NCBI GenBank assembly: GCA_041649575.1 | Contig: JBAZMW010000002.1 | Span: 1,934 to 65,933 of the forward strand | Direction: 5' to 3' | DNA length: 64,000 bases | DNA from: Patescibacteria group bacterium | GTDB lineage: Bacteria > Patescibacteriota > Patescibacteriia > 2-01-FULL-39-33 | The notes under the pieces: model-generated | Databases searched by the model: none | What the model was told of the DNA's origin: nothing | Seen by the model: the letters and a program-made list of their open reading frames with translations, nothing else | Position numbers and translations under genes: made by a program | In this document: in pieces, positions 17,010-51,346 of the stretch | Position numbering within the stretch: the first letter of the stretch is position 1 | Layout: every line of letters starts with the position of its first letter

Positions 17010-17038
17010 TTGACTTTTTTGCTGAAATATACGATAAT
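17010..17038 (+). promoter_or_regulatory. Candidate sigma70-like promoter TTGACT-17-GATAAT driving the ~34-kb glycosylation operon; preceded by hairpin GTTCCTG-tcaatgac-CAGGAAC (16986-17007).
   Basis: Exact 17-nt spacer. 57 nt upstream of ATG 17095. No other intergenic gap longer than 60 nt occurs until 51346. Confidence 0.45.
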
Positions 17039-17094
17039 AATAGGGATAATCATTGGTTTAGGTAGATAAAGAATGCCAAGGTAATTTTTTTAAT

Positions 17095-18237
17095 ATGAGC
17101 AAAATTCTCATTTTTTCCCTGGCCTATCATCCTTTTGTCGGCGGGGCTGAAGTGGCTATCAAGGAAATCACCGAGCGGCTGGCTGGCGAGTTTGAATTTG
17201 AAATGATCACTGCCAATTTGGACGGTCGGCAAAAAGAATTTGAAGAGAATTTTAACGGCCTTAGCAAGATTTATCGTCTTGGCAAAAGAAAATCAGATAA
17301 ATATTTTTTTCCTTGGTTGGCCTGCCGCAAAGCCGTTGAGCTGCACCGGCAGAGTAATTATCAGATGATTTGGGCGATGATGGCCAACCAGGCCGGCTGG
17401 GCCGCTCTGAAATTCAAGAAGAAATTCCCACAAGTTCCATATTTGCTCACTTTGCAGGAAGGGGATAGCGAATGGGATATCTGGCGGCGGACATTTTTGA
17501 TTCGGCCTATTTACAAAGCGATCTACAAAAAAGCTGATTATATTCAGGCTATTAGTAATTTTCTAGCCCAGCGGGCGAAGAATTTGGGAGCTAAGTGTCC
17601 GATAGAAGTGGTGCCGAATGGAATAAGTAACGTCATTGCGAGCGAAGCGAAGCAATCCCATATTTTTAAAAATAAAGATTTAAAGAGAGTTATAACAGTT
17701 TCCAGGTTGGTTAAAAAAAATGGCCTGGAGGATTTAGTAAAAGCCATGGAATTAGTTAATAAAGATTATGACAAGCCAGTCGTTCTAAAAATAATTGGCG
17801 ATGGAGAATTAAAATACAAATTAGAAAAAGCAGTTAATTATTCAAAAATAAAAGACAAAATTGCATTCTTGGGAAAAATAAATAATGAAAAAGTTTATGA
17901 ATATTTGGCTCAAGCCGATATTTTTGTTCGGCCGTCATTGTCTGAAGGGTTGGGTAACGCTTTTTTAGAGGCTATGGCTTGTGGCGTGCCGGTCATTGCC
18001 ACTCCGGTTGGCGGTATTCCCGATTTTTTGAAAGACGGCGAAACTGGCTGGTTTTGCGAGGTAAGAAACCCCAAAAGCATTGCCGAAAAAATAAAGTATA
18101 TTTTTGATGAGGAAAATAAGGAAGAAGTTGACAGGGTGGTCAAAAGTGCCAAAAAGATGGTAGAAGAAAATTATAATTGGGAAAAAATCAGTTTGGACCT
18201 GAAAAAAATTTTTAACCATTTAATAAACCAAGAATGA
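17095..18237 (+). CDS. GT4-family glycosyltransferase.
   Basis: EGLGNAFLEAMACGVPVIATPVGGIPDFLKDGETGWF. GT-B N-terminal half with the LAYHPFVGGAEV motif. Confidence 0.85.
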   Translation: MSKILIFSLAYHPFVGGAEVAIKEITERLAGEFEFEMITANLDGRQKEFEENFNGLSKIYRLGKRKSDKYFFPWLACRKAVELHRQSNYQMIWAMMANQAGWAALKFKKKFPQVPYLLTLQEGDSEWDIWRRTFLIRPIYKAIYKKADYIQAISNFLAQRAKNLGAKCPIEVVPNGISNVIASEAKQSHIFKNKDLKRVITVSRLVKKNGLEDLVKAMELVNKDYDKPVVLKIIGDGELKYKLEKAVNYSKIKDKIAFLGKINNEKVYEYLAQADIFVRPSLSEGLGNAFLEAMACGVPVIATPVGGIPDFLKDGETGWFCEVRNPKSIAEKIKYIFDEENKEEVDRVVKSAKKMVEENYNWEKISLDLKKIFNHLINQE

Positions 18238-19646
18238 GAAAAGAAGTTTTGCTAATTTGTCCTCATTCCGCGCTGGAAATTTTTAAGGAATCGAAAATTA
18301 GCATCGTTATTCCCCATATCCCGTATGTATCACTGGCCAGTTTGGCTGGCGCTCTCTTGGCTGGCGGGCACGGCGTTCATATCTTGGATTTAAGTATTTC
18401 TAAAAACCCCCTGGTTGATTTGGAACAAAAACTAAAAGTTTATCAGCCGGATTTTGTGGGCGTCACTTTTACCACCGGTTTGTGCAGCGAGGCGGCCGCT
18501 ATCGCCAAGAAAGTCAGGGAGCTTTGCGGCCTGGCAAAGTTGATTGCCGGCGGCGCGCACCCGTCGGTTTTTCCGGCCGAGCCGATTGAAAAATACGGTT
18601 TTGATTTTTCGGTTTTTGGCGAAGGCGAGCTTACTTTGTCGGAATTGGTTTCCGGCCGCGATGTTTCTGCCATAGACGGTCTGGCTTATCGCGGGGCCGA
18701 CGGCCAGGTTGTCATTAATTCTCCCCGCGCTCTCATTGGCGATTTGGACGATCTGCCCCCTCCGGCCTATCAGCTTTACAACGCCAAAAATTATCACAGC
18801 CCGAAAGTCGCTTCACGCCGGAGCCCGGTGGCCGCCATTGAGACCAGCCGTGGCTGTCCCTACAGCTGTATTTATTGCAACAAACACATTTTTCAGACAA
18901 AATTTCGTGCCAAGTCGCCCCGACGAGTGGTTGACGAGATGGAAATCCTCTTAAACCTTGGCTACAAGGAAATTCACGTTTGGGACGATTGCTTTTCCGC
19001 TGATTTAAATCACGCTAAAGGCGTTTGCGACGAGATTGTCAGGCGCGGCGTCAAAGTCAACTGGAATGTCTATAATGGCATCAGGGTTGACCGCGTGGAT
19101 GAGGAGTTGCTTTGCAAACTTATGGCCGCGGGCTGCTACCGTCTAAGTTTTGGCATTGAATCGGGCGACCAGGCGGTTTTGAACTTGTCTCAGAAGGGAA
19201 TCACTTTAGAACAAATCAAAAACGCTGTTCGTTTGGCCAACCAAGTCGGCATAGAAACCCTTGGATTTTTTATGGTCGGTTTGCCCGGCGAAACAAAGGA
19301 GACCTTTGAAAAGACCGTTGCCTTGGCCAAAGAATTAGATTTGGATTTGCCCAAAATCGCCATTGCCACGCCACTGCCTGGTACTAAATTTTTCGATGAT
19401 TGGCGGGAAAAGGGTTTGATTAAGTCCTATAATTGGCCCGATTACGTATTGCATACCAAAAAAAGAGTAGCCAGTCATCCCAATATCGGCGATGAAGAAA
19501 TGTTTAAATATTATAATTTATTTTACCGGCAGCTGTATTTACGCCCGAGTTTTATTGCGAAAAGATTTTGGCGAGGACTAAGAACCGGAGAGATATTTTT
19601 TGATATCTATTATTTTTTGAAGGTTTTTATTGGCTTTAAATGGTAA
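18234..19646 (+). CDS. Cobalamin (B12)-binding domain radical SAM protein (class B radical SAM).
   Basis: N-terminal Rossmann-like B12-binding domain (VLLICPHS...GVTFTT...IAGGAHPSVFP). Radical SAM cluster SRGCPYSCIYCNK (CX3CX2C). ATGA overlap with the upstream gene. Confidence 0.85.
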   Translation: MRKEVLLICPHSALEIFKESKISIVIPHIPYVSLASLAGALLAGGHGVHILDLSISKNPLVDLEQKLKVYQPDFVGVTFTTGLCSEAAAIAKKVRELCGLAKLIAGGAHPSVFPAEPIEKYGFDFSVFGEGELTLSELVSGRDVSAIDGLAYRGADGQVVINSPRALIGDLDDLPPPAYQLYNAKNYHSPKVASRRSPVAAIETSRGCPYSCIYCNKHIFQTKFRAKSPRRVVDEMEILLNLGYKEIHVWDDCFSADLNHAKGVCDEIVRRGVKVNWNVYNGIRVDRVDEELLCKLMAAGCYRLSFGIESGDQAVLNLSQKGITLEQIKNAVRLANQVGIETLGFFMVGLPGETKETFEKTVALAKELDLDLPKIAIATPLPGTKFFDDWREKGLIKSYNWPDYVLHTKKRVASHPNIGDEEMFKYYNLFYRQLYLRPSFIAKRFWRGLRTGEIFFDIYYFLKVFIGFKW

Positions 19647-19666
19647 AAGTATAAATTCATTCTACC

Positions 19667-21067
19667 GTGATGTTAAAGTTTTTTAAAAAATATAAAATAG
19701 AAATCATCTTATTGGTGGTTTCTCTTTTGGCCCATTTCTTTTTCTTTTTTTTGTTGTTGCACAACTACGGCCATAATTTTCCCTACGACACCAATGAAGA
19801 TGCGGCGGAATTTTTTACTATTAGTAAAAACATTTATTTTCATGGGGCTTTTTCCAGCGAGCCGGAGCTGATACAATATCCAAACAGTTTGCGTACCCCG
19901 CTTTACCCGGCTTATTTGGCTGGCTTCAATATTTTCACAACCAGTCCTTTATTGCCGATAATTCTACAAAATATTCTGGCCGCTTTGGCCGTGGTTTTGG
20001 TTTATCGCCTGGGTCTGTTGGTAGTAAAAAACAAAACCATCAGCTGGCTGGCCGCTTTGTTGTTTGCCCTCGACCCGCTTGCTAATTATTGGGCCAATAT
20101 CACCGAGCCGGATACCTTGCTGGTAGTGGCGACTCTGGTGGTTTTGGTTTCATTTTTCAAGTTTCGCGACAGCGGCCAGTTAAAATTTCTGGCCCTCACT
20201 AGTTTGTTCTTGGGTCTGTCGATTTTAATCAAACCGGTGGCGCTTTATTTCCCCATTTTCTTTGTCCTGATGATTATCGGGGACGCGTTTTTTAAAAAAC
20301 AGCTGCCAAAAGGAATCAAATGGTCGGCGATTTTTTTGGCGATTACATTTTTGGTGGTCGCGCCGTGGCTGGGGCGCAATTATTCAAGGTTCGGCGTTTT
20401 CTCTGTTTCGTCTATTTCCGGTTACAATCTCTATAGTTACGCCGCTGTCGTTGGTCCTTACCCGCAAGAGGTAAAAGATTATTTAGTGGAGGTGAAAGAA
20501 AAATACGGCCAGTTTGGCCAGAATCGTAATGGCGAGCGCGATCTGCGGGCGCAAAAAAAATTCAAAGCATTGGCGGTCAAAATAATTATGGCCAATCCGA
20601 TCGTTTATGCCAAGGCGCATGTCCTGGGCATGGCCAGATTTTTTTTGGACGACGGTCATAAGGAAATTTTTTACAACCGGCACTACAGGGCGATGCTGAT
20701 TTATAATACGCCCGAGCCGACTGACAAGCCGGATATCACCGGTGAATTTAAAAAAGGCAATTTCGGCGTCATCTGGACCACGATAAAAACCGCCAATTGT
20801 TATACGGTAATCTATTTTATTTCCAAATTAATTTATTTTTTGGCCTATCTCCTGATTCTTTTCGGCTTGATAACTTCTGGCCGGCGTGACAAAAAAATGT
20901 TTGGCGCCTTTTTATTTTTACTGTCGTTGGCCTTTTTCATTGCTTTGGCGGCCGGGCCTTATGGTCCGTCTGTTCGTTATCGTTTGCCGGTTCTGCCCGG
21001 TCTGCTCTTGGTGATGGTCTATGGTTTTATGAGTTTGAAAAAAATCAAGAATCCAACAATAAAATAA
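19667..21067 (+). CDS. GT-C-fold membrane glycosyltransferase (PMT_2 / ArnT-like).
   Basis: About 11 TM helices. N-terminal loop FPYDTNEDAAEFFTISKNIYFHG...LRTPLYPAYLAGF typical of GT39/GT83 relatives. Confidence 0.6.
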   Translation: MMLKFFKKYKIEIILLVVSLLAHFFFFFLLLHNYGHNFPYDTNEDAAEFFTISKNIYFHGAFSSEPELIQYPNSLRTPLYPAYLAGFNIFTTSPLLPIILQNILAALAVVLVYRLGLLVVKNKTISWLAALLFALDPLANYWANITEPDTLLVVATLVVLVSFFKFRDSGQLKFLALTSLFLGLSILIKPVALYFPIFFVLMIIGDAFFKKQLPKGIKWSAIFLAITFLVVAPWLGRNYSRFGVFSVSSISGYNLYSYAAVVGPYPQEVKDYLVEVKEKYGQFGQNRNGERDLRAQKKFKALAVKIIMANPIVYAKAHVLGMARFFLDDGHKEIFYNRHYRAMLIYNTPEPTDKPDITGEFKKGNFGVIWTTIKTANCYTVIYFISKLIYFLAYLLILFGLITSGRRDKKMFGAFLFLLSLAFFIALAAGPYGPSVRYRLPVLPGLLLVMVYGFMSLKKIKNPTIK

Positions 21068-21097: not shown

Positions 21098-22525
21098 ATG
21101 TCTGGTCAGGTTGAAGAAAAATTTATTATTTTAGGTGCTGGGCCGGCGGGTCTGGCGGCTGGTTATGAGTTGGCAAAAAACGGTAAAAAAGTTGTTTTGA
21201 TCGAAAAAGACGACGGCGTCGGCGGATTAAGCCGGACCAAAAAATATCAGGGTCATTATTTTGATTTAGGCCCTCATCGTTTTTTCACCAAGAATAATGA
21301 AGTGGAATCACTCTGGCGGGCTTTATTGGGCAATGACTTTTTGGAATTGCCGCGTTTGACACGGATTTACTACAAAAAAAATTTTTATCATTATCCGCTT
21401 CAGCCGGTGGACGCTTTGTATAAACTGGGATTAGTCAGGTCGGTCTGGGTGATCGGCAGCCTGCTCAAGACAAAATTCAAAAACTTATTTTTTAGAAAAC
21501 CAGAGGCGAGCTTCGAAGATTGGGTGACTAATCGTTTCGGCAGTAAATTATTTTCTATATTTTTTAAGAGCTATACCGAAAAGTTATGGGGCATCAGCAC
21601 TCGTGATTTAGGAGCGGATTGGGCAGTCCAGCGGATCAAAAACCTATCATTAATTTCAGCGATTAAAAATGCCATTTTTGGCGATGAACACGGTAAAGTA
21701 AAGTCGCTGATTGAGAGATTTAATTATCCAAAGCGTGGCGCTGGTATGATGTATGAAAAAATGGCCGAGAATATCAAAAAATTGGGCGGAGAAATTATTT
21801 ATAATGCTAACGTCAAAAACATTTTACATGACGAAGACAAAGTCAGTGGCGTGATAATCGAGGATCAGAGCGGTGAGCGCCAAGTCGCCGGTGATTACAT
21901 CATTTCCAGTTTGGCGCTAAACGACATGATTAGAGCACTGTCTCCCTTGGCTCCGGAAAATGTTTTACGCGCGGCCGAAAATTTACGCTTTCGCTCGTTG
22001 GTCATTGTCTATTTGGTGGTCGAAGCGTCACAAGTCTTCCCGGATAACTGGGTTTATGTTCATGAGCCGGATTTAAAGGTTACCCGCGTCCAAGACACGA
22101 GCAGTTTTGGCCCATACCTGTCCGAGAATAAAAACCAAACCATGGTTTGCTTGGAGTATGCTTGCTGGTCTGGTGATGCCCTGTGGAGCCAGTCTGACGA
22201 TGAGTTGGTGGAAATGGGCAAAAGAGACATCGCTGCCATGGGGCTTTTGGGCGGCTCAAGGATTTTGGACGGTTTGGTCGGACGCATCCCTTATGCTTAT
22301 CCGGTTTATGCTTTCAATTACGAAGATAATTTGAAAATAATTTTTGATTATTTAGGCCAGTTTAAAAATTTTCAAACCGTCGGCCGGTCTGGCTTATTCC
22401 ACTACAACAACATGGACCACTCCATTTTGACTGGCATTTTCGCCGCCAGGAATTTCATGGGCTCAAACTACGATGTCTACAAAGTCAATGCCGAAGCCGA
22501 TTATCACGAATGCAAATTACCATAA
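21098..22525 (+). CDS. FAD-dependent oxidoreductase (amine-oxidase / protoporphyrinogen-oxidase-like; possible UDP-galactopyranose-mutase relative).
   Basis: ILGAGPAGLAAGYELAKNGKKVVLIEKDDGVGGLSRT dinucleotide-binding motif, then GPHRFFT. 475 aa. Confidence 0.65.
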   Translation: MSGQVEEKFIILGAGPAGLAAGYELAKNGKKVVLIEKDDGVGGLSRTKKYQGHYFDLGPHRFFTKNNEVESLWRALLGNDFLELPRLTRIYYKKNFYHYPLQPVDALYKLGLVRSVWVIGSLLKTKFKNLFFRKPEASFEDWVTNRFGSKLFSIFFKSYTEKLWGISTRDLGADWAVQRIKNLSLISAIKNAIFGDEHGKVKSLIERFNYPKRGAGMMYEKMAENIKKLGGEIIYNANVKNILHDEDKVSGVIIEDQSGERQVAGDYIISSLALNDMIRALSPLAPENVLRAAENLRFRSLVIVYLVVEASQVFPDNWVYVHEPDLKVTRVQDTSSFGPYLSENKNQTMVCLEYACWSGDALWSQSDDELVEMGKRDIAAMGLLGGSRILDGLVGRIPYAYPVYAFNYEDNLKIIFDYLGQFKNFQTVGRSGLFHYNNMDHSILTGIFAARNFMGSNYDVYKVNAEADYHECKLP

Positions 22526-23265
22526 ATATGGATCAAAAAAAAGCTGGTATAAATTTTAAAAAAGGCAAATTGGTCTCTGGTGTTATTTATCCTTCGTTTT
22601 TTCCCATTACCAAAGAAGACCTGGTGCTTAATATTGGTTGCGGCGATGGAGTGCAGGCCGTGGTTTATGGCGGTAATTTCAAGGAAATGGTTGGCGTTGA
22701 TATTAACGAGAAAAGTTTGGCCACAGCCGTGGCAGTGATGGATTATTATGGTATAAAAAATTTCAAATCGATCGGTGGTAATGTCGAAAAAATTCCGCTT
22801 AACGATCGGTTTGATAAGGCAATAGCCATCGACATTATTGAACACGTTATTCATCCAGAAAAAGTAATTGGAGAAATAAGAAGATTGCTTAAGGATAATG
22901 GGCGGCTACTGATGACCTTTCCAGCCATGCATGATAAATGGGAGCGTTTCTTCCGTTTGGTGGGTCAAAAGATTCTGCGGCGCCGGAGCCAGGCCGCCAG
23001 CAAAAACGGCTGGAACCCGGATCGGCACCAACATGATTATTCGCTCAAGAAATGGCTGAAATTGCTCCAGCACGGCGGTTTTAAATTGGTGAAGTCGCGC
23101 GCCAGCACCATGTGGCCGCCGCTGCATTATTTGGGTCTGCCAAAATTTTGGTTTTCCAGTAAAATTATCAGAACAATTGATGGGTTCTTTTGCCGGTTGC
23201 CAATTGTTAAAAATTTCGGTCAAGCATTGGTTTGCGAATTCATAAAAGACAACAAACATGAATAA
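22510..23265 (+). CDS. Class I SAM-dependent methyltransferase (Methyltransf_11-like).
   Basis: LNIGCGDGVQAV (motif I). IAIDIIEHVIHPEKVIGEIRRLLKDNGRLLMTFP (motif II / post II). Confidence 0.75.
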   Translation: MQITINMDQKKAGINFKKGKLVSGVIYPSFFPITKEDLVLNIGCGDGVQAVVYGGNFKEMVGVDINEKSLATAVAVMDYYGIKNFKSIGGNVEKIPLNDRFDKAIAIDIIEHVIHPEKVIGEIRRLLKDNGRLLMTFPAMHDKWERFFRLVGQKILRRRSQAASKNGWNPDRHQHDYSLKKWLKLLQHGGFKLVKSRASTMWPPLHYLGLPKFWFSSKIIRTIDGFFCRLPIVKNFGQALVCEFIKDNKHE

Positions 23266-24418
23266 GTTGAAAAAACAAAATCAGAGCATTATCATTGCCG
23301 CTGATATTTTTCCGCCGGACATCGGCGGCCCGGCAACCTATAGTCAAAAAGTTGCCGCCGAATTAAAAAACAAAGGCTGGCAAGTCAAATTAATTTGCTA
23401 TAGTGATAAAAAGATTAAGGATGATCTCGGTTTTCCGGTTTATAGGATTATTCGAGGCAAATTTGCGCCTTGGCGCTATCTAAAATACTTTTTAAAGTTA
23501 TGCCAACTGGCTAGAGGCGTTGACATAATTTACGCCATGGGTCCGGTGGCCGCTGGCTGGCCGGCGTCTTGGGCGGCCAAATTACTAGGCAAGAAGCTTG
23601 TTGTAAAGATAGTCGGCGATTATGCCTGGGAGCAGGCCAGAAATTTGAAGTTGACGGATTTGGGCATAGATGAGTTTCAGACGAAAGACTGGCATGGCAA
23701 AACTGGTCGGTTGAAAAGAATTGAGACCCGTGTTTGTTTCAAGGCCGATAAAGTTATTACCCCGAGTGAGTATTTGAAAAAAATTGTGAAAGGCTGGAGC
23801 GTAGAAGAAAATAAAATTCAAGTGATTTATAATGCTATTGAATTAAAAACCGTTGAGCCGATATTAAAACAGGAAAATGAAAGGTGGTTGATTTCTGTGG
23901 CTCGTTTAGTTCCCTGGAAAGGAATTGATACAATAATTAAATTAATGCCAGAGATAATAAAAGAAATACCAAACTTGAAATTTATAGTTATTGGTGATGG
24001 GCCGGAAAAACCAAAACTTCAAGAGATTATCCACTCTTTTGGATTAGAAAACAGCGTCAGATTGATGGGTTTAATGACTCATGGGGATACTTTAAAATAT
24101 ATTTGCGCCAGTGACTTGTTTATTCTAAATAGCGGCTATGAAGGATTACCTCACGTTTTAATAGAGGCTTTATCGTGCAACGTGCCTGTTGTCGCTAGTG
24201 ATGTGGGTGGCGTTTCCGAGGTTATATATTGTAATGAACTTGGGTTAATTTTCAAATATAATAATGAAAGAGAAATTTTGAAAGTAATTTTAGACTTTTT
24301 TAAAACAGGAGCCAAAAGTGATTGGTTATTAAAATCAAAAGAAAGGACTTCTTTCTTTGAACAATTTTCTTTCCCCAATATGATAAATAAAACCGAAGAA
24401 TTATTAAAAAATTTATGA
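23258..24418 (+). CDS. GT4-family glycosyltransferase.
   Basis: EGLPHVLIEALSCNVPVVASDVGGVSEVI. 8-nt overlap with the upstream gene. Confidence 0.85.
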   Translation: MNKLKKQNQSIIIAADIFPPDIGGPATYSQKVAAELKNKGWQVKLICYSDKKIKDDLGFPVYRIIRGKFAPWRYLKYFLKLCQLARGVDIIYAMGPVAAGWPASWAAKLLGKKLVVKIVGDYAWEQARNLKLTDLGIDEFQTKDWHGKTGRLKRIETRVCFKADKVITPSEYLKKIVKGWSVEENKIQVIYNAIELKTVEPILKQENERWLISVARLVPWKGIDTIIKLMPEIIKEIPNLKFIVIGDGPEKPKLQEIIHSFGLENSVRLMGLMTHGDTLKYICASDLFILNSGYEGLPHVLIEALSCNVPVVASDVGGVSEVIYCNELGLIFKYNNEREILKVILDFFKTGAKSDWLLKSKERTSFFEQFSFPNMINKTEELLKNL

Positions 24419-25530: not shown

Positions 25531-26234
25531 ATAAGGTTTTTGTTTCTATTGCCACTTACAACGAAAAAGAGAATATTGAGAATTTAGTCAGGCAAATTTT
25601 TAGCCAGCAGGTTGACAATCTGTCTATCGTTGTAATTGACGACAATTCGCCCGATGGCACGGCGCAGATTATCACTGGTTTAAAACAAGAATTTTCCGGC
25701 CTGAATCTGATTAAGCGTTCCGGCAAACTGGGCTATGGCAGCGCTCATATCGCCGGTTTCAAAAAAGCGATGGCCGAGGGGGCGGATATTATTGTTTCTA
25801 TGGATGCCGATTTTTCCCATCAGCCAGAAAAAATTCCGGAGCTGGTGGCAGCTATTAGAAGTGGCAACGACGTGGCTGTCGGTTCAAGAAAAATTAAAGG
25901 CGGAGAGGTTGTCGGCTGGGGCTGGTGGCGAAAATTTTGCAGCACCGGCGCCATGATGGCTTCTCAAGTTATCTTAGGCATCAAGACGCGCGATCTGACC
26001 AGCGGCTTCAGGGCCTATAAAAGAGAGGTTTTTGACCGGGTTGATTTGGACGGGATCAAAAGCGACGGCTATTCCTTTTTGGAAGAATTGATTTATTTGA
26101 TTGAAAAACAGGGCTTTTCAATCAAAGAGATTCCCATTATTTTTCATGATCGTCGCTTGGGCCATTCAAAATTATCAAAAAAAGAAATAGTAAAATTTTT
26201 TGTTACCATTTTCAGAATTAAATTTGGCAAATGA
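25527..26234 (+). CDS. GT2 polyprenol-phosphate glycosyltransferase (Dpm1 / Ppm1-like, soluble form).
   Basis: VSIATYNEKENIENL...VIDDNSPDGT...MDADFSH (the DAD motif)...SRKIKGGEVVGWGWWR, characteristic of the dolichol-P-mannose synthase family. ATGA overlap. Confidence 0.85.
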   Translation: MNKVFVSIATYNEKENIENLVRQIFSQQVDNLSIVVIDDNSPDGTAQIITGLKQEFSGLNLIKRSGKLGYGSAHIAGFKKAMAEGADIIVSMDADFSHQPEKIPELVAAIRSGNDVAVGSRKIKGGEVVGWGWWRKFCSTGAMMASQVILGIKTRDLTSGFRAYKREVFDRVDLDGIKSDGYSFLEELIYLIEKQGFSIKEIPIIFHDRRLGHSKLSKKEIVKFFVTIFRIKFGK

Positions 26235-34891: not shown

Positions 34892-34951
34892 GGTTTTTGT
34901 GTTAAAGTAGCCTAATAAATTAGAAGGAAAAAGCCATAAAAATAAGCGATT

Positions 34952-41975: not shown

Positions 41976-41977
41976 AT

Positions 41978-44538: not shown

Positions 44539-45142
44539 AAATTTTTTTGGCACCAAAGAGCTGGTTGATTATTGTTTGAAATATGTGACAGGCGAAGTGG
44601 CGGATGTCGGGGCCGGCACGGCCAAGTATAAGCCGATGATTTTAAGCCGAGCCTCTTCTTATTTGGCTTTTGATGTAGTGCCAGGGGAGAAAATAGACGT
44701 GGTTGGTGATGTTTTAAACATGCCTTTGTCCAGTGAGAGCTTTGATACGGTTATCTCCACTCAAGTACTCGAACACGTCGAAAAGCCATGGGTGATGGTT
44801 TCTGAAATAAGAAGAATTCTAAAGCCCGGCGGCGTTTGCGTTCTCACCGCGCCTTTTTTAATTTCTTATCATCCTGATCCGACGGATTTTTTCCGTTACA
44901 CCACCGAGGGCATAGTCTCATTGTTTAAAAATGAGGGTTTCGAAATTATAGAAGCCGGCTCTTATGGGCGTTTATTTTCTACCTTTAAAGAGATTGTTCG
45001 GCTCGGTTATTTCCGCCAAAAACGTTTTAAGGGTCAGGAGTTATTTTTGAAGTACGCACAAAAATTTACCCATTGGCTTGACGGCTTTGTTAAAAACAAA
45101 AGCATTTATACCAATATTTATGTTATTGCCAGAAAAAAATGA
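44522..45142 (+). CDS. Class I SAM-dependent methyltransferase.
   Basis: VADVGAGTAKY (motif I). VISTQVLEHVEKPWVMVSEIRRILKPGGVCVLTAPF. Confidence 0.75.
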   Translation: MKLENKNFFGTKELVDYCLKYVTGEVADVGAGTAKYKPMILSRASSYLAFDVVPGEKIDVVGDVLNMPLSSESFDTVISTQVLEHVEKPWVMVSEIRRILKPGGVCVLTAPFLISYHPDPTDFFRYTTEGIVSLFKNEGFEIIEAGSYGRLFSTFKEIVRLGYFRQKRFKGQELFLKYAQKFTHWLDGFVKNKSIYTNIYVIARKK

Positions 45143-46593
45143 AAATCATATTAATTAATCCGCCGGTTTGTAATGATATCGGCCATAAATTGGCCGATAC
45201 GCCGCCCCTGGGCTTGCTTTATTTAGCCTCTTTTTTGGAAAAAAATGGCTATCGTGAGGTTAAGGTTGTCGACGCCGATGTCGCTTTAATGAGCTGGCCC
45301 GCCTTAAGAGATTTTTTAATCAAGGAAAAGCCAGAAATAGTCGGGCTGTCTGGCGCTTCATTAGTTTTGCCGGCTTTGATAAAAACTGCCCAATTAGCCA
45401 AAGAGGCTTTGCCCGGTGTCATAACAATCGCTGGCGGCTTCGGACCAACCAAGGAGCCAGAAAAAGTTTTAAGAGATAGTAGTGGTTCCATCGATTTTAT
45501 TGTCAGAGGAGAAGGGGAGGTTACTTTACTGGAAATGGTCAAGCAGATTGAAAGCCGGGAGAAAAGGTATAACCAGATAAAAGGATTGGCTTATCTCGAT
45601 CAAAATAATTTAGTTATCACTGAAAGCAGGGAGGCAGTCAGGGATTTGGATTCTTTGCCTTGGCCGGCTTATCATCTTTTAGAACAAAAGTTTTCTGACT
45701 ACGGCGGTATGCATGCTCGTTACAAGGAGATGGGACGGCCCAACGCTGTTATGATCGCTGCCCGCGGTTGTCCGCATCGTTGCACTTTTTGTAGTCTGGG
45801 CTCGAGGCTGTATCGCCAGCGAAATCCTCGGGATGTCGTTGATGAGATGGAGTCTTATGTTAAGAAGTTCCAAGCTAAATCCATCCAGCTTTACGATGAC
45901 GAGTTTGTTGGTCTTAGCCCCAAACAGAATGAATGGATTAATCAGATTTGCGATGAAATAATTAGACGCGATTTGGACAAAAAACTTTCTTTTCTGGTTC
46001 AGGGACGTTGTAGTCAGTTTGTCGATTTAAAAACTTTGCAGAAAATGCGTCAAGCCAATTTCCGCTGGATTTGGTGGGGCGTGGAATCAGGTTCTCAAAA
46101 AGTTTTAGATTTGATAAAAAAGGATTTAAAAATTGAAAATGTGATCCGCGATTTCTCTCTGGCCAAGCAAGCTGGAATTAAGTCATTAATGTTTATCATG
46201 GTCGGTTTTCCAGGAGAAACGCCAGCCGACATCAAAATGACCGCCGCCTTGGTAAAAAAAATCAAGCCCGACGACATCGCCATTCATATTGTCACACCAT
46301 ACCCGGGTTCGGAGATGAGAAAATATTTGGAAGAAAATAATTTACTTGAGACCACCGACTATTATAAATTCAATACGCGTCGGGACGTAATCCATCATAC
46401 TCAAGAAATGACTGCCGAAGAAATAAAAAAATATTTTCATCTTCTGGTTTTTCGGTTTTCCAATGGTCATTGGTATTTTATTAAGTTTTTCTTTAAATCA
46501 TTGACCACCATCGATGGCTGGAAAAAATTATTCAAAAGGATAAAAATGGCGTTTAGCTATTTTTCCAGTTGGTTTAAGATTAATGTTAATTAA
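45139..46593 (+). CDS. B12-binding domain radical SAM protein.
   Basis: MKIILINPPV. ARGCPHRCTFCSLG. ATGA overlap. Confidence 0.85.
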   Translation: MKIILINPPVCNDIGHKLADTPPLGLLYLASFLEKNGYREVKVVDADVALMSWPALRDFLIKEKPEIVGLSGASLVLPALIKTAQLAKEALPGVITIAGGFGPTKEPEKVLRDSSGSIDFIVRGEGEVTLLEMVKQIESREKRYNQIKGLAYLDQNNLVITESREAVRDLDSLPWPAYHLLEQKFSDYGGMHARYKEMGRPNAVMIAARGCPHRCTFCSLGSRLYRQRNPRDVVDEMESYVKKFQAKSIQLYDDEFVGLSPKQNEWINQICDEIIRRDLDKKLSFLVQGRCSQFVDLKTLQKMRQANFRWIWWGVESGSQKVLDLIKKDLKIENVIRDFSLAKQAGIKSLMFIMVGFPGETPADIKMTAALVKKIKPDDIAIHIVTPYPGSEMRKYLEENNLLETTDYYKFNTRRDVIHHTQEMTAEEIKKYFHLLVFRFSNGHWYFIKFFFKSLTTIDGWKKLFKRIKMAFSYFSSWFKINVN

Positions 46594-47352
46594 GTGATTG
46601 TGAAAAAAATAATCGTTACAACCAGTTGGGATGACGGCCATAATTTGGATTTAAAGACAGCTTCTTTGTTAAAAAAATATGACTTACGCGGCACTTTCTA
46701 TATTCCCAAGCAGTTTAACTCTCGCTTAACAGAGGAAGAGATATTAGAAATTTCTAAAACGCAGGAGATAGGCGCCCACACCAAGAGCCACGCTTCGCTT
46801 ACCGAAATCGATTTGGTTTCAGCGAAACAAGAGATCGACGTCTCTAAAAAATGGTTGGAAAGCCTCCTAGGGCAACCAATAAAAATGTTTTGTTATCCCA
46901 GAGGATTGTATAATGATCAAATTAAAGAGGAAGTCAGAAGAGCTGGCTTTATTGGAGCCAGGAGCGTTCTTTATGGAGAAGAAATAAAAGATCCCTTTGA
47001 ATTGCCGGTCAATTTACAGATTTATCCCTTTCCTTGTCGCAAAAGAAATGCCCGCACTCTGCATTGGTCAAAATTTTTATTTCAGCCGCTAACAAGGAAA
47101 TTTTCAGTCATCAGAAAAAATCATTTACCCTGGAAATCTTTTTTAAGTTGGAGTAATTTTGCGGAGCAGTATTTTTTGTCGGTCTTAAGTCGGAGTGGTT
47201 TTCTGCACCTCTGGGGCCATTCCTGGGAAATTGAAAAATACGGCATGTGGGGCCAGTTGGAAAAATTTTTAAAAGTGATCTCTAGCCGTAAAGATACATT
47301 ATATTTAACTAATTCCGAAGCGATTTGGTATGCGCATCATGGTTCTAACTGA
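46594..47352 (+). CDS. Polysaccharide deacetylase (CE4 / NodB-homology) family protein.
   Basis: TTSWDDGHNLDLKTASLLKKYDLRGTFYIP. HTKSHASL. Starts 1 nt after the upstream stop. Confidence 0.7.
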   Translation: MIVKKIIVTTSWDDGHNLDLKTASLLKKYDLRGTFYIPKQFNSRLTEEEILEISKTQEIGAHTKSHASLTEIDLVSAKQEIDVSKKWLESLLGQPIKMFCYPRGLYNDQIKEEVRRAGFIGARSVLYGEEIKDPFELPVNLQIYPFPCRKRNARTLHWSKFLFQPLTRKFSVIRKNHLPWKSFLSWSNFAEQYFLSVLSRSGFLHLWGHSWEIEKYGMWGQLEKFLKVISSRKDTLYLTNSEAIWYAHHGSN

Positions 47353-48604
47353 TTGTTTTCCTCCTTTGTTGGGAGGGGGCGCGGCGATTATCGCCCAAAG
47401 ACTGTCTCTGGCCATGCAAAAAGCAGGTCATGAAATTTTTGTTTTTTCTATTTGCCAGAAGGAAGAAGACGCTGGCGAGCGGGAAGTGGATGGATTAAGA
47501 GTGTTCTTCTTGCGTGATCAATATAACCCAAAGTGGCGTGGCTGGCTATCTTTATACAACCGTAAAGTCCTCTCGGTTTTGGAAAAGCATTTGGCCGATT
47601 TTAGACCGGATGTGGTCCAGGCTCACAATATTCATTCCTATATTTCTTACGCTTGCTTGAAACTGTCAAAAAAATATTGCAGAAAGGTTTTTTTGACGGC
47701 TCATGATGTGGATATTTTTCATCAGGACAAATTTTTTAGTTATATCGATAGAAATAACTTAACAATTCCCAGCAGCTTCAATTACAAATTAACAATTATA
47801 GAAAGGATTAAACAGATCAAGCAAACCAAAAACCCTTTTAGGAGTTTAATTATTAAATATTACTTGAAAAACGTAAATCGGATTATTCCAGTCAGCCAGG
47901 CCCTGGAGCAGGCTTTAAAGCAGAATGGTATTACTAAATTGAGGGTCATCCATAACGGCATTGAGCCTGGTGAGGCCGTAGTTAACGCTAGAAGTCTGAT
48001 TAAAGAAAGATTTAATATTGATTTGGCAAAAAAAATAATTTTAATCGCCGGTCGGTTTGGCGGGTTAAAGGGCGGTGATTTGATTCTAAAGTATGTTCAG
48101 GAAATAAAAAAATCATTTAGTGATTTTGTTTTTGCCATCGCCAGCGATAAATATCAGTATAATGAAAATATTTTTAAGCAGGCCAAGGCCATGAACTTAT
48201 CGGAGCATCTGGTTTTTACCGGTTGGCTAAATTATAGCGAGTTGAGAATTCTATATTCCGGCTGTGATGTCTGTTTTATTCCCTCGGTTTGCTTTGACTC
48301 ATTTCCCAATGACAATTTGGAAGCCATGTCTTTTAAAAAGCCGGTCGTTGGCACTTGTTTCGGTGGCACGCCGGAAGCAGTGGTTGACGGCGAAACTGGC
48401 TACGTCGTTAATCCTTTTAATATACTTAAAGTTGCAGAAAAAATTGTAGAGTTATTAAATAATTCAACAAAAGCAGAAAAAATGGGGGAAGCTGGATTTA
48501 GAAGGGTAAAAGAGAAATTTAGTCTAAGTGAGCAGATAAACAAATATTTTACTGTTTTTTTTGAAGCTGCTATAAATAAAGAGTCAAATAAAAAGCCACA
48601 ATGA
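47330..48604 (+). CDS. GT4-family glycosyltransferase.
   Basis: MRIMVLTDCFPPLLGGGAAIIAQRLSLAM (Glyco_trans_4-like N-terminus). C-terminal DSFPNDNLEAMSFKKPVVGTCFGGTPEAVVDGETGYVV. Confidence 0.8.
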   Translation: MRIMVLTDCFPPLLGGGAAIIAQRLSLAMQKAGHEIFVFSICQKEEDAGEREVDGLRVFFLRDQYNPKWRGWLSLYNRKVLSVLEKHLADFRPDVVQAHNIHSYISYACLKLSKKYCRKVFLTAHDVDIFHQDKFFSYIDRNNLTIPSSFNYKLTIIERIKQIKQTKNPFRSLIIKYYLKNVNRIIPVSQALEQALKQNGITKLRVIHNGIEPGEAVVNARSLIKERFNIDLAKKIILIAGRFGGLKGGDLILKYVQEIKKSFSDFVFAIASDKYQYNENIFKQAKAMNLSEHLVFTGWLNYSELRILYSGCDVCFIPSVCFDSFPNDNLEAMSFKKPVVGTCFGGTPEAVVDGETGYVVNPFNILKVAEKIVELLNNSTKAEKMGEAGFRRVKEKFSLSEQINKYFTVFFEAAINKESNKKPQ

Positions 48605-50325
48605 AAAATCAGCTAATTAAAAAAATTATTTTTCCTCTATTTTTAATTTTTATTTTTATTGTCGCTATAGGTATTTGGTCTACCCCGATTCTATTTAAAG
48701 GCTATCCGGTTTCCCTAAGGAGCGTGGAAATTGTTTTAGCTAGAAATTTAGCCCAGAGCAGTGTTTATGGCTCGGAGAATGATTTAAATGTGGTAGTGGC
48801 GCCGGAACTCGTTAAGACCGAAGCTCATTACAGCTCTCAAGGCAACAAATTCAGTCCGATTTTTTGGTCAATGATTTTTAAGGCTTTAGGCCATCAAGAC
48901 TGGAATCATCTGATCATAATTTCTTTGATTATCAACGCTTTAAGTCTGATCTTTTTTACTCTCACCATCCGTTTTTTATTTGGTATGAAAACGGCCATGT
49001 TTTTCCCTTTTATTTATATTTTACTGCCATCAATCTGGCAGACTGCGGCCGTATCTTTGGGCGTCTATGAATTCAGCCTGTTATTTTTCTCTCTCTTCAC
49101 CTTATTTTATTTTTGGGGCGGTAAGCAAAAATTCAGTTATTTTTATCTAGTTCTGTCTGGTATCTTTATGATTTTTTCTTGTCTAGCCAAAGAAGTGATG
49201 TTTTTGTTTGTGCCGGTTTTTTTCTTTTGGCTTTTATTTTACAAAAAGAAAAAGGAATTATTGGCTGTCTTTATTCCTTTTTTTGTCTTACTAGCGATTT
49301 TTTGGCTGCCAACCATGTTGGGATTTAAGGGCCAGAATCATTACCGTAATTTCTTCGTCGTCAATTCTGCGCAAGAAGACAGTTATGCCGATTATCACTC
49401 TTTTGGTGAGTTTTGTCGCGATCCTTATACTTTTCATTTCGAACGCGAAGCAACCAAGATTAAGTTTGAACAAAAAATTAAACAGACGGAAAATGAAGGC
49501 GGCTGGCTTTATCTAGGAGCTTTGGCTAAAACCGGAGCTAATAATGCTATTAGAAATATTAGTTTTAGCGAGCGTCTATCGGAAGGGATGGTTTTATTAT
49601 TAAAGCATTTACTTCGCTACCTTTCCCTAGAAGATATTGGAGGGCCTTTTATCTTTTTATTAATGATAATCGGTTGGTGGCAATTAAAGAAAAAGGACGT
49701 TAAGCTTCATTATCTTCTTGGCGTCTGGCTAGTCGCTGTTCCATTTCTCCTAGCTTTTGTGGCCCTGGCTAGCCGTAATCATTTAGTTGACTTTGGTTTT
49801 GCCATTGCCGGCTTGGTCTCTTTGGGTCTGATTGGTATTTGGCAAACAACCAAAGACAGCTACTCTTCCGGCAAGTATGCTAAAATATTTTTTATTCTTG
49901 TAATTTTGCTGACTTTGTACGCCTTGTTTTTGGCTGGTCGTACTTTTTGGGGCAGGGCCTATGATAGTTCAAATACTTTAGAAATACAGTATCTAGCTAA
50001 AAAAACAAATGAAATACCAAATATTAGTCCTCGGGAGGTAATTGCTGGTGGCTGTGCTTGTTTTCAGCCAACTTTGAATTATTTGACTAATAAATCAGTG
50101 GTTTTTTTCCATCCCGATACTATCAGGGAACTAGTGGAAAAAAGAAAGTTACAGGCGGCTTTTGATAAATTTGGCGTTAAATATTTTATTGGTTATGATT
50201 CTCAAATTTCTAAACTGATAGCCGAAAACAGCAATGCGAAAAACATCGCCGCTTGGCCCGAAAAAAAAGAAGTTAATCTCCCTACCAGTTATAATAAGAG
50301 TTGGCTTCTTAATTTAATCAGATAA
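48601..50325 (+). CDS. Polytopic membrane protein, hypothetical (glycan polymerase / GT-C-like candidate).
   Basis: About 12 TM helices and a C-terminal soluble region. ATGA overlap with upstream GT4. Confidence 0.5.
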   Translation: MKNQLIKKIIFPLFLIFIFIVAIGIWSTPILFKGYPVSLRSVEIVLARNLAQSSVYGSENDLNVVVAPELVKTEAHYSSQGNKFSPIFWSMIFKALGHQDWNHLIIISLIINALSLIFFTLTIRFLFGMKTAMFFPFIYILLPSIWQTAAVSLGVYEFSLLFFSLFTLFYFWGGKQKFSYFYLVLSGIFMIFSCLAKEVMFLFVPVFFFWLLFYKKKKELLAVFIPFFVLLAIFWLPTMLGFKGQNHYRNFFVVNSAQEDSYADYHSFGEFCRDPYTFHFEREATKIKFEQKIKQTENEGGWLYLGALAKTGANNAIRNISFSERLSEGMVLLLKHLLRYLSLEDIGGPFIFLLMIIGWWQLKKKDVKLHYLLGVWLVAVPFLLAFVALASRNHLVDFGFAIAGLVSLGLIGIWQTTKDSYSSGKYAKIFFILVILLTLYALFLAGRTFWGRAYDSSNTLEIQYLAKKTNEIPNISPREVIAGGCACFQPTLNYLTNKSVVFFHPDTIRELVEKRKLQAAFDKFGVKYFIGYDSQISKLIAENSNAKNIAAWPEKKEVNLPTSYNKSWLLNLIR

Positions 50326-50329
50326 AAAG

Positions 50330-51346
50330 ATGATTGATTTTAAAAATCTACCTCAAGTTGCCGGCAATATCCTTAAAGCGAGGATTGGCCATCGCGTTCC
50401 TCTGAAAGTCACCCAGTATGTGACTTATCGTTGCAATTTAGCTTGTGGTTTTTGCGGGCGTCGTTATTTGAAAACGTCAGAAATGGCCACCGAGCAGATT
50501 AAAAAATGCATGGATGAGTTTAAGAAAATGGGTACGATTTTTTGGTCTTTTAACGGCGGTGAGCCGCTGCTGCGTCCGGACATTGGGGAATTAATTAATT
50601 ATTCCCAAAAATTAGGATTCAAGTGTTCCATTATGACTAATGGCACCTTAATTCCGGAAAAAATAGAGCAGTTGAAAGGCTTGGATTTAGTCGAAGTCAG
50701 TCTCGATGGTCCCGAGGAAATAAATGACGCCATTAGGGGTCAGGGCACCTTTAAAAAAGTTATCAAGGCGATAGAAATATTAAGGGCTAATAACATCTTG
50801 GTCTGTATTGATTCGGTTATCAACAGCACCAACCTCGATTATTTAGACGAGCTTTGGAAAATAAGCGAAAAATACGGTACTCAATTGGAGTTTCAGCCGG
50901 TTATTATCCATAGTGGTGATCAAGAAAAAAAAGCGGCTCAATATTTTCCGGCCAAGGAAAAATTTTTGGTGGCGATTAACTGGTTAATCGCTCAAAAGAG
51001 ACAAGGCCGTAAAATTAACAACTCTTTTTCTTATTTAGAACAACTAAAAAGTTATCCAGATCTGCCCATGTCTTTAGACTGCTGGGCGTCTTATCTTTTT
51101 TGTGTCATCACTCCCGATGGCTTTGTGGCGCCTTGCGCCGTTATGCTTGATGAACAGGAGAAATTCAAAAATGGCCTGGAAGTTAGTTTTGAAAAAGCTT
51201 TTTATAGTCTACCGGATCTTAAAAAATGTCGTCGTTGTTTTTTTAGTTGTTATGGGGAATATAACTGTGCGCTTAATTCATTAACTAAAACCGGATTAAA
51301 GTTTATCAAAAATAAAATATTGGGTAGCGGTTGGTTTTGGCAGTAA
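50330..51346 (+). CDS. Radical SAM protein with a C-terminal SPASM/twitch-like Cys-rich domain.
   Basis: VTYRCNLACGFCGRRY (CX3CX2C). C-terminal CWASYLFCV...APCAV...CRRCFFSCYGEYNC. Confidence 0.8.
   Translation: MIDFKNLPQVAGNILKARIGHRVPLKVTQYVTYRCNLACGFCGRRYLKTSEMATEQIKKCMDEFKKMGTIFWSFNGGEPLLRPDIGELINYSQKLGFKCSIMTNGTLIPEKIEQLKGLDLVEVSLDGPEEINDAIRGQGTFKKVIKAIEILRANNILVCIDSVINSTNLDYLDELWKISEKYGTQLEFQPVIIHSGDQEKKAAQYFPAKEKFLVAINWLIAQKRQGRKINNSFSYLEQLKSYPDLPMSLDCWASYLFCVITPDGFVAPCAVMLDEQEKFKNGLEVSFEKAFYSLPDLKKCRRCFFSCYGEYNCALNSLTKTGLKFIKNKILGSGWFWQ

Follow-up and report, generated by a model that had tools for sequence, protein, structure and literature searches.

The window analysed here is a stretch of 64,000 nucleotides (nt) from a Patescibacteria group bacterium, a member of the candidate phyla radiation (CPR) (GenBank assembly GCA_041649575.1, contig JBAZMW010000002.1, positions 1,934 to 65,933 of the forward strand), and the element under study is a compact array of 29 genes, g1 to g29, at positions 17095-51346 of its + strand. 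With a rough probability of 0.6, this array is read as the main transcription unit of a surface-glycan supercluster of at least 55 kb, in which radical S-adenosylmethionine (rSAM) enzymes would serve as accessory tailoring modules. Nearly all of the window encodes surface-glycan synthesis. The interest of the locus lies in the rSAM chemistry and its spread among CPR bacteria rather than in the operon structure; long, tightly packed glycan operons are well known, and the claim of an operon would on its own be ordinary.

As regards gene content, 27 of the 29 array genes and most of the flanking genes have a Pfam or NCBIfam assignment. The array encodes eight glycosyltransferases (GTs) of the GT-B fold, seven of them GT4-type (g1, g6, g7, g9, g11, g13 and g27) and one GT9 (g22), together with two GT2 enzymes (g8 and g17), two GT-C transferases with a PMT_2 domain (g3 and g16; at least three GT-C when g28 is included) and a Wzx flippase (g23). 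To these are added four class I methyltransferases (MTs; g5, g14, g18 and g24), a NodB-type deacetylase (g26), two flavoenzymes (g4 and g19), six B12-domain rSAMs (g2, g10, g12, g20, g21 and g25), a further rSAM (g29) and two polytopic membrane proteins that lack a family model (g15 and g28). The genes are as follows, with percentages giving sequence identity, TM standing for transmembrane, and L numbers denoting loci elsewhere that were used for comparison.

g1, 17095-18237, + strand: GT4-type GT-B; Glycos_transf_1 (4.5e-43) and Glyco_transf_4; 57-59% orthologue in L003/L088.
g2, 18234-19646, + strand: B12-domain rSAM; Pfam B12-binding and Radical_SAM; motif CPYSCIYC; best NCBIfam partial match HpnJ, 197 bits (cutoff 578).
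g3, 19670-21067, + strand: GT-C (PMT_2) membrane glycosyltransferase; PMT_2 5.8e-11; 9 TM segments.
g4, 21098-22525, + strand: flavin adenine dinucleotide (FAD) oxidoreductase of the PRK07208 family; NF005548 588 bits, above the cutoff of 389.
g5, 22528-23265, + strand: class I SAM methyltransferase; Methyltransf_31/23/11; gene-caller start, with an alternative start at 22510.
g6, 23258-24418, + strand: GT4 (Pfam).
g7, 24415-25530, + strand: GT4 (Pfam); 50-51% orthologue in L003/L088.
g8, 25527-26234, + strand: soluble GT2, polyprenyl-phosphate-sugar-synthase-like; GT2 1.3e-30; sub-cutoff NCBIfam matches to dolichyl-phosphate (Dol-P)-hexose transferase, AglJ, ArnC and PpgS.
g9, 26231-27292, + strand: GT-B (Glycos_transf_1, Pfam); 57-58% orthologue in L003/L088.
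g10, 27285-28784, + strand: B12-domain rSAM (Pfam); motif CPYRCTFC; alternative TTG start at 27270; 77% orthologue in L089.
g11, 28786-29865, + strand: GT-B (Pfam), first member of the conserved triad g11-g12-g13; orthologues (46-60%) precede that of g12 in 8 relatives.
g12, 29858-31336, + strand: B12-domain rSAM, core of the triad; 48-70% orthologues in CPR; AlphaFold2 (AF2) model with a predicted local distance difference test (pLDDT) score of 93.
g13, 31333-32484, + strand: GT-B (Pfam); in 8 of 9 relatives a 41-49% orthologue immediately follows that of g12.
g14, 32465-33145, + strand: class I SAM methyltransferase (Pfam); single possible start; 20-nt overlap.
g15, 33152-34891, + strand: membrane protein with 10 TM segments; no Pfam match; GC content 0.345, the lowest in the array; 58% orthologue in L089.
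g16, 34952-36724, + strand: GT-C (PMT_2) membrane glycosyltransferase; PMT_2 2.8e-8; 10 TM segments; follows the 60-nt gap.
g17, 36731-37603, + strand: GT2 (Pfam) with C-terminal TM, polyprenyl-phosphate-sugar-synthase-like; NCBIfam partial matches AglJ, Dol-P-hexose transferase, ArnC and PpgS; 43% paralogue of m5.
g18, 37609-38373, + strand: class I SAM methyltransferase (Pfam); 79% orthologue in L089; 34% homologues in the L105/L106 cassette.
g19, 38384-39040, + strand: nitroreductase-family protein of the flavin mononucleotide (FMN) type; Nitroreductase 1e-29; best NCBIfam partial match BluB, 82 bits (cutoff 150); 54-56% orthologues in L105/L106.
g20, 39047-40462, + strand: B12-domain rSAM of a 470-aa CPR family; 58% to the rSAM part of m2 and 52-56% to the members in L104-L106.
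g21, 40482-41975, + strand: divergent B12-domain rSAM (Pfam); motif CPHACAYC; only 24-28% identity to the other paralogues.
g22, 41978-43165, + strand: GT9, heptosyltransferase-like; Glyco_transf_9 4e-19.
g23, 43201-44538, + strand: Wzx-type flippase; Polysacc_synt 52.6 bits, above the cutoff of 28.2; 54-57% orthologues in relatives.
g24, 44522-45142, + strand: class I SAM methyltransferase (Pfam); 48% orthologue directly after Wzx in L102.
g25, 45139-46593, + strand: B12-domain rSAM (Pfam); 53% orthologue in L102 and 46% in L105; best NCBIfam partial match BchE, 228 bits (cutoff 481).
g26, 46594-47352, + strand: NodB-type polysaccharide deacetylase; GTG start; Polysacc_deac_1 1e-17; 50% orthologue after the rSAM in L102.
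g27, 47330-48604, + strand: GT4 (Pfam); 41% orthologue in L102 and 37% in L105.
g28, 48601-50325, + strand: GT-C-fold membrane transferase (AF2 and Foldseek) of a CPR family without a Pfam model; family length about 570 aa.
g29, 50330-51346, + strand: rSAM, SPASM/twitch-like; Radical_SAM 1.2e-25; 13 Cys; sub-cutoff NCBIfam matches MftC, PTO1314 and PqqE.

The array is an unbroken series of co-directional open reading frames (ORFs) with a coding fraction of 99.4%, only 209 nt of its 34,252 bp being non-coding. When the longest ORFs are taken, its junctions measure from -23 to +60 nt with a median of 0.5 nt, and they are tighter than the 16 other same-strand junctions of the window (medians 0.5 vs 25.5 nt, Mann-Whitney p=0.0007). 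The earlier note, made from the sequence of this stretch, had counted 27 genes, all separated by less than 60 nt and most of them overlapping. The ORF listing raises the count to 29; the gaps are short throughout, but the largest, between g15 and g16 (34892-34951), is exactly 60 nt, and about half of the junctions overlap (13-14 of 28) rather than most. The nine overlaps for which coordinates had been quoted are all exact, seven of them being ATGA and those at 23258 and 29858 being 8-nt overlaps, and the GT4, B12-rSAM and GT9 identities assigned there are borne out by Pfam at every position. Mis-called starts had been raised as a possible cause of the overlaps; an in-frame scan finds close alternative starts only in g3, g5, g10 and g27, most starts are unambiguous, and every junction stays at or below 60 nt whichever start is chosen, including the slightly later starts that a gene caller run on the source contig gives to g3, g5 and g10. 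The 20-nt overlap at g14 is genuine, since only one start is available to this gene. Terminator-like sites were found in none of the array junctions, the overall hairpin rate equals that of shuffled sequences, and the hairpins at junctions and at convergent 3' ends are no stronger than those of shuffles. This compact arrangement on one strand is found again in nine related Patescibacteria loci, and a single polycistronic operon is a plausible reading of the array that is consistent with these relatives.

The ten rSAM enzymes of the window comprise eight with a B12 domain and two of the SPASM type (g29 being SPASM-like), and all ten carry the CxxxCxxC motif. The eight B12-domain members all match PF02310 at 56-79 bits (cutoff 32) as well as PF04055, and would presumably use cobalamin. 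The AF2 model of g12 adopts the class-B rSAM fold: Foldseek retrieves QCMT (1e-26), AprD4 (6e-24), TsrM, OxsB, CysS and TokK, the E-values for QCMT, TsrM, OxsB, CysS and TokK running from 1e-26 to 1e-16, at a sequence identity to solved class-B relatives of only 16-21%. Sequence searches of the PDB with g20 return AprD4 (9e-26), OxsB (1e-19) and QCMT (3e-18). An assignment of g29 as HpnH (adenosylhopane synthase) was considered and rejected, as it scores 72.6 against TIGR03470 (cutoff 225) and 28.2 against DUF3463 (cutoff 31.3).

According to TM prediction, the rSAM proteins of the window are soluble apart from their fused modules. Because rSAMs are found fused to a flippase-like domain and to a GT-C transferase, at least some of them would act at the membrane on lipid-linked sugars; the GT2 enzymes g17 and m5 carry C-terminal TM helices typical of polyprenyl-phosphate-sugar synthases. 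A role in glycan tailoring is the most economical reading of the gene context, and since the logic of the cassettes resembles that of ArnC/D/T and HpnI/K/J, the rSAMs probably tailor lipid-linked sugars. As to the reaction itself, we infer either C-methylation or a rearrangement or deoxygenation like those of HpnJ, AprD4 and OxsB. Methylases and non-methylases of this class are inseparable by sequence according to its reviews, and HpnJ is proposed to act on a lipid-linked sugar by contracting its glucosamine ring (PMC9204698).

Synteny was compared across nine related Patescibacteria loci, with L104-L106 drawn from the 470-aa family, and shows that the rSAM genes recur in a small number of mixed cassettes. 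In the first of these, the order g11-(optional MT)-g12-g13 is kept in 8 of 9 relatives at 41-70% identity. Six cluster representatives of the g12 orthologues have a fused C-terminal class I MT, whose domain is 52-54% identical to the free-standing MT encoded just upstream in L103; g14 was considered as the split counterpart of this domain and is not claimed as such, being only 25% identical. The order Wzx-MT-rSAM-deacetylase-GT4 (g23-g27) is identical in L102 and partial in L100 and L105, and that of rSAM-rSAM-GT9 (g20-g22) recurs in L005/L101. A GT-C and a SPASM-type rSAM are adjacent both here (g28-g29) and in L103, and form one 854-aa fusion, with PMT_2, in L005/L101. In the closest relative, L089, g10 to g19 occur in the same order at 49-79% identity. 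Thus the compact layout and the mixed GT/MT/deacetylase/rSAM cassettes are kept in relatives, but not every member of the series is: in L003/L088 the orthologues of g9 and g11 are directly adjacent, without g10, and no orthologue of g2 occurs in the 21 kb read. On this evidence the rSAM genes resemble accessory elements inserted into a transferase backbone that is itself conserved.

The 470-aa family, to which g20 and the rSAM part of m2 belong, has at least 120 cluster representatives at 55% identity or more, and the named ones are almost all Patescibacteria. In L105/L106 it is part of a cassette with the order GT2, nitroreductase, MT, deacetylase, B12-rSAM, B12-rSAM, SPASM rSAM, MT, B12-rSAM, in which the GT2 is 55-58% identical to m5, the nitroreductase 54-56% to g19, the MT 34% to g18, the second B12-rSAM 58-65% to m2, the SPASM protein 52-55% to m1 and the last B12-rSAM 60% to m3. 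In L104, LPG_synthase_TM is encoded by a gene of its own, which follows a member of the family and whose start overlaps the stop of that member; ahead of the cassette lie a phosphoglycosyl transferase and a GT2. In the window, the cassette is divided between the array (g17-g21) and a convergent operon (m5-m1), with paralogues across the two (g17/m5 43%, g20/m2 58%); since the cassette is shared with the convergent operon, the 34-kb array is not a self-contained pathway.

Directly after the cassette of L106, at 12848-15403, lie genes for a ferredoxin, a cysteine desulfurase, NifU and an FNR-like reductase, a set that would provide dedicated Fe-S assembly and electron supply. Where the window has g14-g22, the glycan operon of some relatives has VTC and DUF4956 genes (L003 12802-14248, L100 10433-11935 and L102 12664-15991), with a CotH gene beside VTC/DUF4956 in L102 and elsewhere, at the end of the locus, in L003. 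A scan of genome contigs with the g12 alignment gave, among the matches listed, only distant B12-rSAMs (25-41%) from many phyla and no orthologous synteny, and a metagenome scan gave only three close loci. The nearest relatives of g12 outside CPR, among the matches listed, reach up to 41% and belong to the DPANN groups Aenigmatarchaeota, Nanoarchaeota and Woesearchaeota (L008, L016, L041 and L080); some of these loci likewise contain several genes of the B12-rSAM, GT and MT types, and similar loci may be shared among small-genome episymbionts.

The convergent operon consists of six genes, m6 to m1, which meet g29. The features outside the array are the following, TPR standing for tetratricopeptide repeat.

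1361-5236, + strand: protein of 1291 aa; signal peptide; high content of S, T, N, G and V; no Pfam match.
6164-7948, + strand: GT-C (PMT_2) fused to TPR repeats (Pfam).
7982-9715, + strand: GT-C (PMT_2 8.7e-23).
9731-12055, + strand: Wzy_C-TPR protein, candidate ligase or O-oligosaccharyltransferase; Wzy_C 69.6 bits, above the cutoff of 31.7; 12 TM segments.
14231-15379, - strand: GT4 (Pfam).
15452-16306, + strand: UDP-glucose/GDP-mannose dehydrogenase homologue of 284 aa, without the C-terminal domain and part of the N-terminal domain.
m1, 51348-52337, - strand: rSAM/SPASM protein (Pfam Radical_SAM and SPASM), last gene of the convergent operon; 52-55% orthologues in L105/L106.
m2, 52334-54727, - strand: B12-domain rSAM fused to a flippase-like LPG_synthase_TM domain (Pfam); TIGR00374 68 bits, above the cutoff of 43.
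m3, 54724-56166, - strand: B12-domain rSAM (Pfam); 60% orthologue in L106.
m4, 56185-57015, - strand: polysaccharide deacetylase with DUF3473 (Pfam); partial match TIGR03006.
m5, 57012-57902, - strand: GT2 (Pfam) with C-terminal TM helices, polyprenyl-phosphate-sugar-synthase-like; 55-58% orthologues head the L105/L106 cassette.
m6, 57911-59269, - strand: initiating polyprenyl glycosylphosphotransferase; Bac_transf 7.9e-68; TIGR03025 373 bits, above the cutoff of 296.
61075-61554, + strand: GtrA-like small membrane protein, candidate lipid-linked-sugar flippase; GtrA_DPMS_TM 7.9e-31.

Besides GtrA, the region beyond the convergent operon encodes a nucleoside diphosphate (NDP)-sugar epimerase/dehydratase and a further GT2, and upstream of the array there are also TPR proteins. 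The parts of a Wzx/Wzy system are present in the window, namely the initiating glycosylphosphotransferase m6, the Wzx protein g23 and the Wzy_C-domain ORF at 9731-12055; a chain-length regulator (Wzz/PCP) domain was found in none of the ORFs scanned across the 64 kb. Parts of the Arn/Gtr type are present too, in the form of PF01522 deacetylases (g26 and m4), GtrA and the flippase-like domain of m2, and GT-C enzymes (the PMT_2 proteins and the fold of g28). The 1291-aa secreted protein, encoded in a region of raised GC content (0.50-0.52, compared with about 0.40 outside it), is a candidate for an S-layer or other surface protein and may be a target of glycosylation. The dehydrogenase homologue at 15452-16306 may be a truncated gene or a short variant. 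The window lies within a 235-kb metagenome contig, and its exact and close homologues carry the labels Patescibacteria, Candidatus Buchananbacteria, Kuenenbacteria, Portnoybacteria and Parcubacteria.

Among the less easily classified proteins of the array, g15 is possibly a GT-C or a polymerase; its match to a GT-C profile is weak (hhalign, probability 49%). The AlphaFold model of g28, built from 36 homologues (pLDDT 89), is matched by Foldseek to AglB, STT3 and PglB, with E-values from 3e-7 (AglB) to 3e-5, and then to ALG9/12 and ArnT, and hhalign aligns g28 with the PMT_2 profile of the window at a probability of 75%. A BLAST comparison of g28 with the PMT_2/rSAM fusion of L005 gave no match, and the link is drawn instead from synteny, hhalign and the fold search. 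Of its 68 homologues, every named one comes from CPR or from an unclassified 'bacterium'. As for g19, the rSAM cassette of other CPR genomes has an orthologue of it as a constant member. BluB, its best partial match, is the synthase of the B12 lower ligand, and g19 may have a redox or cobamide-related helper role.

The region upstream of g1 holds two elements that could govern the start of transcription.

17010-17038, + strand: candidate sigma-70-type promoter TTGACT-17-GATAAT, with 10/12 matches; located in the divergent intergenic region, some 55 nt before the ATG of g1.
16986-17007, no strand assigned: palindrome GTTCCTG-N8-CAGGAAC between the divergent -35 boxes, unique in the window; hairpin z=-2.1, followed by a T-run.

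The divergent ORF at 16382-17053 has an AT-rich, implausible stretch of 53 codons at its beginning and probably starts at Met54 (window position 16894). If it does, about 200 nt of real intergenic space remain, the only such space available, which favours the 17010-17038 site by position. The same region of about 200 nt contains an opposite-strand promoter-like site with 11/12 matches at 16996-16968, and the palindrome is a possible operator or + strand terminator. With regard to translation, none of the 29 array genes pairs with the anti-Shine-Dalgarno (anti-SD) sequence at -4.5 kcal/mol or below, a value reached by 18% of random 20-mers; among the other genes of the window 2 of 21 do so. Start codons are preceded by 20 nt with a composition of 46% A and 79% A+T. 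At the other end of the array, the stop codons of g29 and m1 lie 1 nt apart (51344-51350) without an intergenic terminator, both within the loop of a 9-bp A/U-rich hairpin, which is weak and does not surpass those of shuffles; transcripts of either operon would continue into the other in antisense orientation. An Rfam scan detected neither a cobalamin riboswitch nor any other RNA family, and no tRNA genes were found in the window.

A pathway can be proposed from these parts. The phosphoglycosyl transferase m6 of the convergent operon would prime the polyprenyl-phosphate carrier, and the eight cytoplasmic GT-B enzymes would lengthen the chain, while GT2 enzymes of the ArnC/GtrB/PpgS type would charge polyprenyl phosphate with single sugars. 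The lipid-linked sugars would be modified on the cytoplasmic side of the membrane by the deacetylases, the four class I MTs, the two flavoenzymes and the rSAMs. Wzx and the flippase-like proteins would then carry the products across the membrane, and the GT-C enzymes (g3, g16, g28 and the two upstream), together with the Wzy_C-TPR protein, would attach them to the final acceptor, possibly the secreted protein at 1361-5236. The rSAM genes would travel in conserved mixed cassettes and not one-to-one with GT4 genes. The 29 genes would probably be transcribed as one long polycistronic mRNA from the 17010-17038 promoter, possibly with the help of internal promoters, and the downstream genes would start without a Shine-Dalgarno sequence, by means of A/U-rich junctions or termination-reinitiation. 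A wider proposal, tentative and rather doubtful as a whole, is that of a widespread CPR pathway in which B12-domain rSAMs would remodel polyprenyl-phosphate-linked amino sugars (in the order GT2, deacetylase, one or more rSAMs, flippase, GT-C) by C-methylation, ring contraction or deoxygenation, to give sugar or cyclitol units new to cell-surface glycans and a surface dependent on scavenged cobamide.

Several observations weigh against the reading of the array as one main transcription unit with rSAMs that tailor lipid-linked sugars. None of the B12-rSAMs reaches the curated NCBIfam cutoff of any family: HpnJ is the best partial match of g2, g20 and m2 (197-228 bits), the best score of 228 comparing with an equivalog cutoff of 578, and the best BchE score is 244 against an equivalog cutoff of 481. 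AprD4, among the closest structural relatives, has a B12 domain but does not bind cobalamin (PMC12931638). Binders and non-binders are not told apart by any rule based on sequence. The top NCBIfam matches of the GT2 enzymes g8, g17 and m5 (haloarchaeal Dol-P-hexose transferase, AglJ, ArnC and PpgS, 58-88 bits) all stay below cutoff, the rSAM-LPG_synthase_TM fusion of the m2 type is rare (2 of the 120 homologues listed, P0121 and P0122), and the position of an rSAM between two soluble GT-B enzymes in g11-g12-g13 fits action on a growing oligosaccharide equally well. Finally, the 17010-17038 site, which the earlier note had singled out as the only good promoter candidate, does exist with 10/12 matches, but nine other + strand sites inside the array match equally well. 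Because of these equal-scoring sites, and as promoter-like match totals are near shuffle expectation (68 against 45.5+/-6, and 46 against 49.9+/-7.8), the motif by itself proves little. The internal sites, together with a 9/12 site with an extended TG at 34880-34908 in the g15/g16 gap and gaps of 120-150 nt elsewhere in relatives (L003 12651-12802, L100 6034-6154), speak for several close-set transcription units with internal promoters in upstream coding regions and no obligatory co-expression. This arrangement is a serious possibility that we rate somewhat below even; against it stand the shuffle-like rate of such sites, the overlaps and the lack of terminator-like sites at the junctions, and the fact that L089 does not keep the largest gap at this place.

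The action of the rSAMs can also be viewed in other ways. The gene orders GT4-rSAM (g1-g2), GT-rSAM-GT-rSAM-GT (g9-g13) and rSAM-rSAM-GT9, from which the earlier note had derived an alternation and a stepwise scheme of sugar addition with a radical step after each sugar, are real, and that of g11-g12-g13 is widely conserved, as described above. They would suit a colinear assembly line, in which a GT4 adds a sugar to an undecaprenyl-diphosphate oligosaccharide, the next-encoded B12-rSAM tailors it, and the order of genes is the order of reactions; the methylation of a lipid-linked sugar by MoeK5 during moenomycin assembly would lend this scheme some support. The alternation, however, does not exceed chance (6 rSAM-GT junctions, compared with 4.1 expected from shuffled gene orders, p=0.19; 4 of 6 rSAMs with a GT neighbour against 3.5 expected), nor does the stepwise scheme hold: six B12-rSAMs face 10 GT-A/B and at least 3 GT-C enzymes, thus at least 13 transferases, g25 lies between an MT and the deacetylase, g20 between the nitroreductase and another rSAM, and the g10 orthologue is missing between those of g9 and g11 in L003/L088. 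Gene order in glycan loci rarely mirrors reaction order, and the assembly line is considered improbable. Duplication of GT4-rSAM pairs was rejected as the origin of the modularity, with paralogues too divergent and no paired pattern: B12-rSAM paralogues are 24-37% identical (except g20 and m2, at 58%) and GT4s 22-32%, and paralogues this old exclude a recent duplication of such pairs. Action at an earlier stage, on soluble nucleotide sugars, would supply neighbouring GTs with C-methylated, deoxy or epimerised donors. It would agree with the solubility of the rSAM proteins themselves, with the genes for NDP-sugar epimerase/dehydratase and for DegT-type aminotransferase that adjoin the g12 orthologue in L100 and L102, and with a distant homologue of g4 in L003 (28% identity), an Amino_oxidase fused to an NDP-sugar epimerase/dehydratase domain; fusions of rSAMs to membrane modules (m2 and PMT_2-rSAM-SPASM) and the conserved adjacency to polyprenyl-phosphate-sugar-synthase-like GT2 and PF01522 genes make it unlikely. 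Still less credit is given to a role away from glycans, in which the rSAMs would modify membrane lipids (ladderane, hopanoid or tetraether-like), a peptide akin to ribosomally synthesised and post-translationally modified ones (RiPP-like), or a cofactor. The partial matches include a ladderane-lipid rSAM, HpnR/HpnJ, ApyD and BzaD, that of g19 is BluB, and distant homologues in other phyla, among the matches listed, often form rSAM-only arrays without GT genes; all of those family matches are far below cutoff, however, the 64 kb hold no lipid-synthesis or precursor-peptide genes, and across CPR the rSAMs stay linked to GT, deacetylase and flippase genes.

If the reading of the rSAMs as tailoring modules of a surface-glycan supercluster is right, a large uncharacterised group of rSAMs would be devoted to cell-surface glycans, to which recent reviews of the B12-dependent class draw no tie, polysaccharides and glycans being unmentioned in them; the same reviews present MoeK5 as a C-methylase of the moenomycin pathway and nothing more. 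A search of the literature on rSAM enzymes in CPR or in polysaccharide loci found nothing relevant. A very small genome would spend about 60 kb on one decorated glycan, and its surface structure may be linked to the supply of cobamide from neighbours. The cassettes are small and concrete, and are offered for reconstitution.

Among characterised systems, the synthesis of bacteriohopanetetrol cyclitol ether by HpnI-HpnK-HpnJ provides a likeness in that three enzymes act in turn on a lipid-anchored amino sugar: a GT2 that attaches an N-acetylhexosamine, a deacetylase that liberates the amine and a B12-domain rSAM that rearranges the ring. HpnK is a YdjC-type deacetylase, whereas here the deacetylases are of the NodB type (PF01522), hopanoid genes are absent, HpnJ scores are far below 578, and several rSAMs are accompanied by MTs, a nitroreductase, flippases and GT-C enzymes. 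In ArnC-ArnD-ArnE/F-ArnT, as in PpgS/Rv3779 and GtrA/B/V, a GT2 loads the sugar, a PF01522 enzyme deacylates it in the cytoplasm, a small flippase moves it and a GT-C transfers it; all four types of component occur in the window. Unlike in that system, rSAM, MT and flavoenzyme steps would be inserted here, the acceptor would not be lipid A, and ArnC scores 65 against 529 bits.

With the Wzx/Wzy operons for O-antigen, capsule and S-layer glycan (slg), such as pneumococcal cps and Geobacillus slg, the locus shares the one-strand organisation, the initiating transferase, the many GTs, Wzx and Wzy_C, and it adjoins a candidate surface-protein gene. It differs from them in its size (29 genes, 34 kb), which falls near the top of their range, in the lack of a visible chain-length regulator and in its five or more GT-C enzymes, and to our knowledge the eight B12-domain and two SPASM-type rSAMs have no counterpart in characterised glycan loci. 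The closest parallels for the enzymes themselves are found in antibiotic pathways, where GenK, GenD1, Fms7, MoeK5, AprD4 and OxsB have the same fold and act on sugars or sugar-like rings. Those enzymes serve the secondary metabolism of actinomycetes and Bacillus, whereas the rSAMs described here belong to an envelope-glycan locus in a CPR bacterium with a reduced genome.

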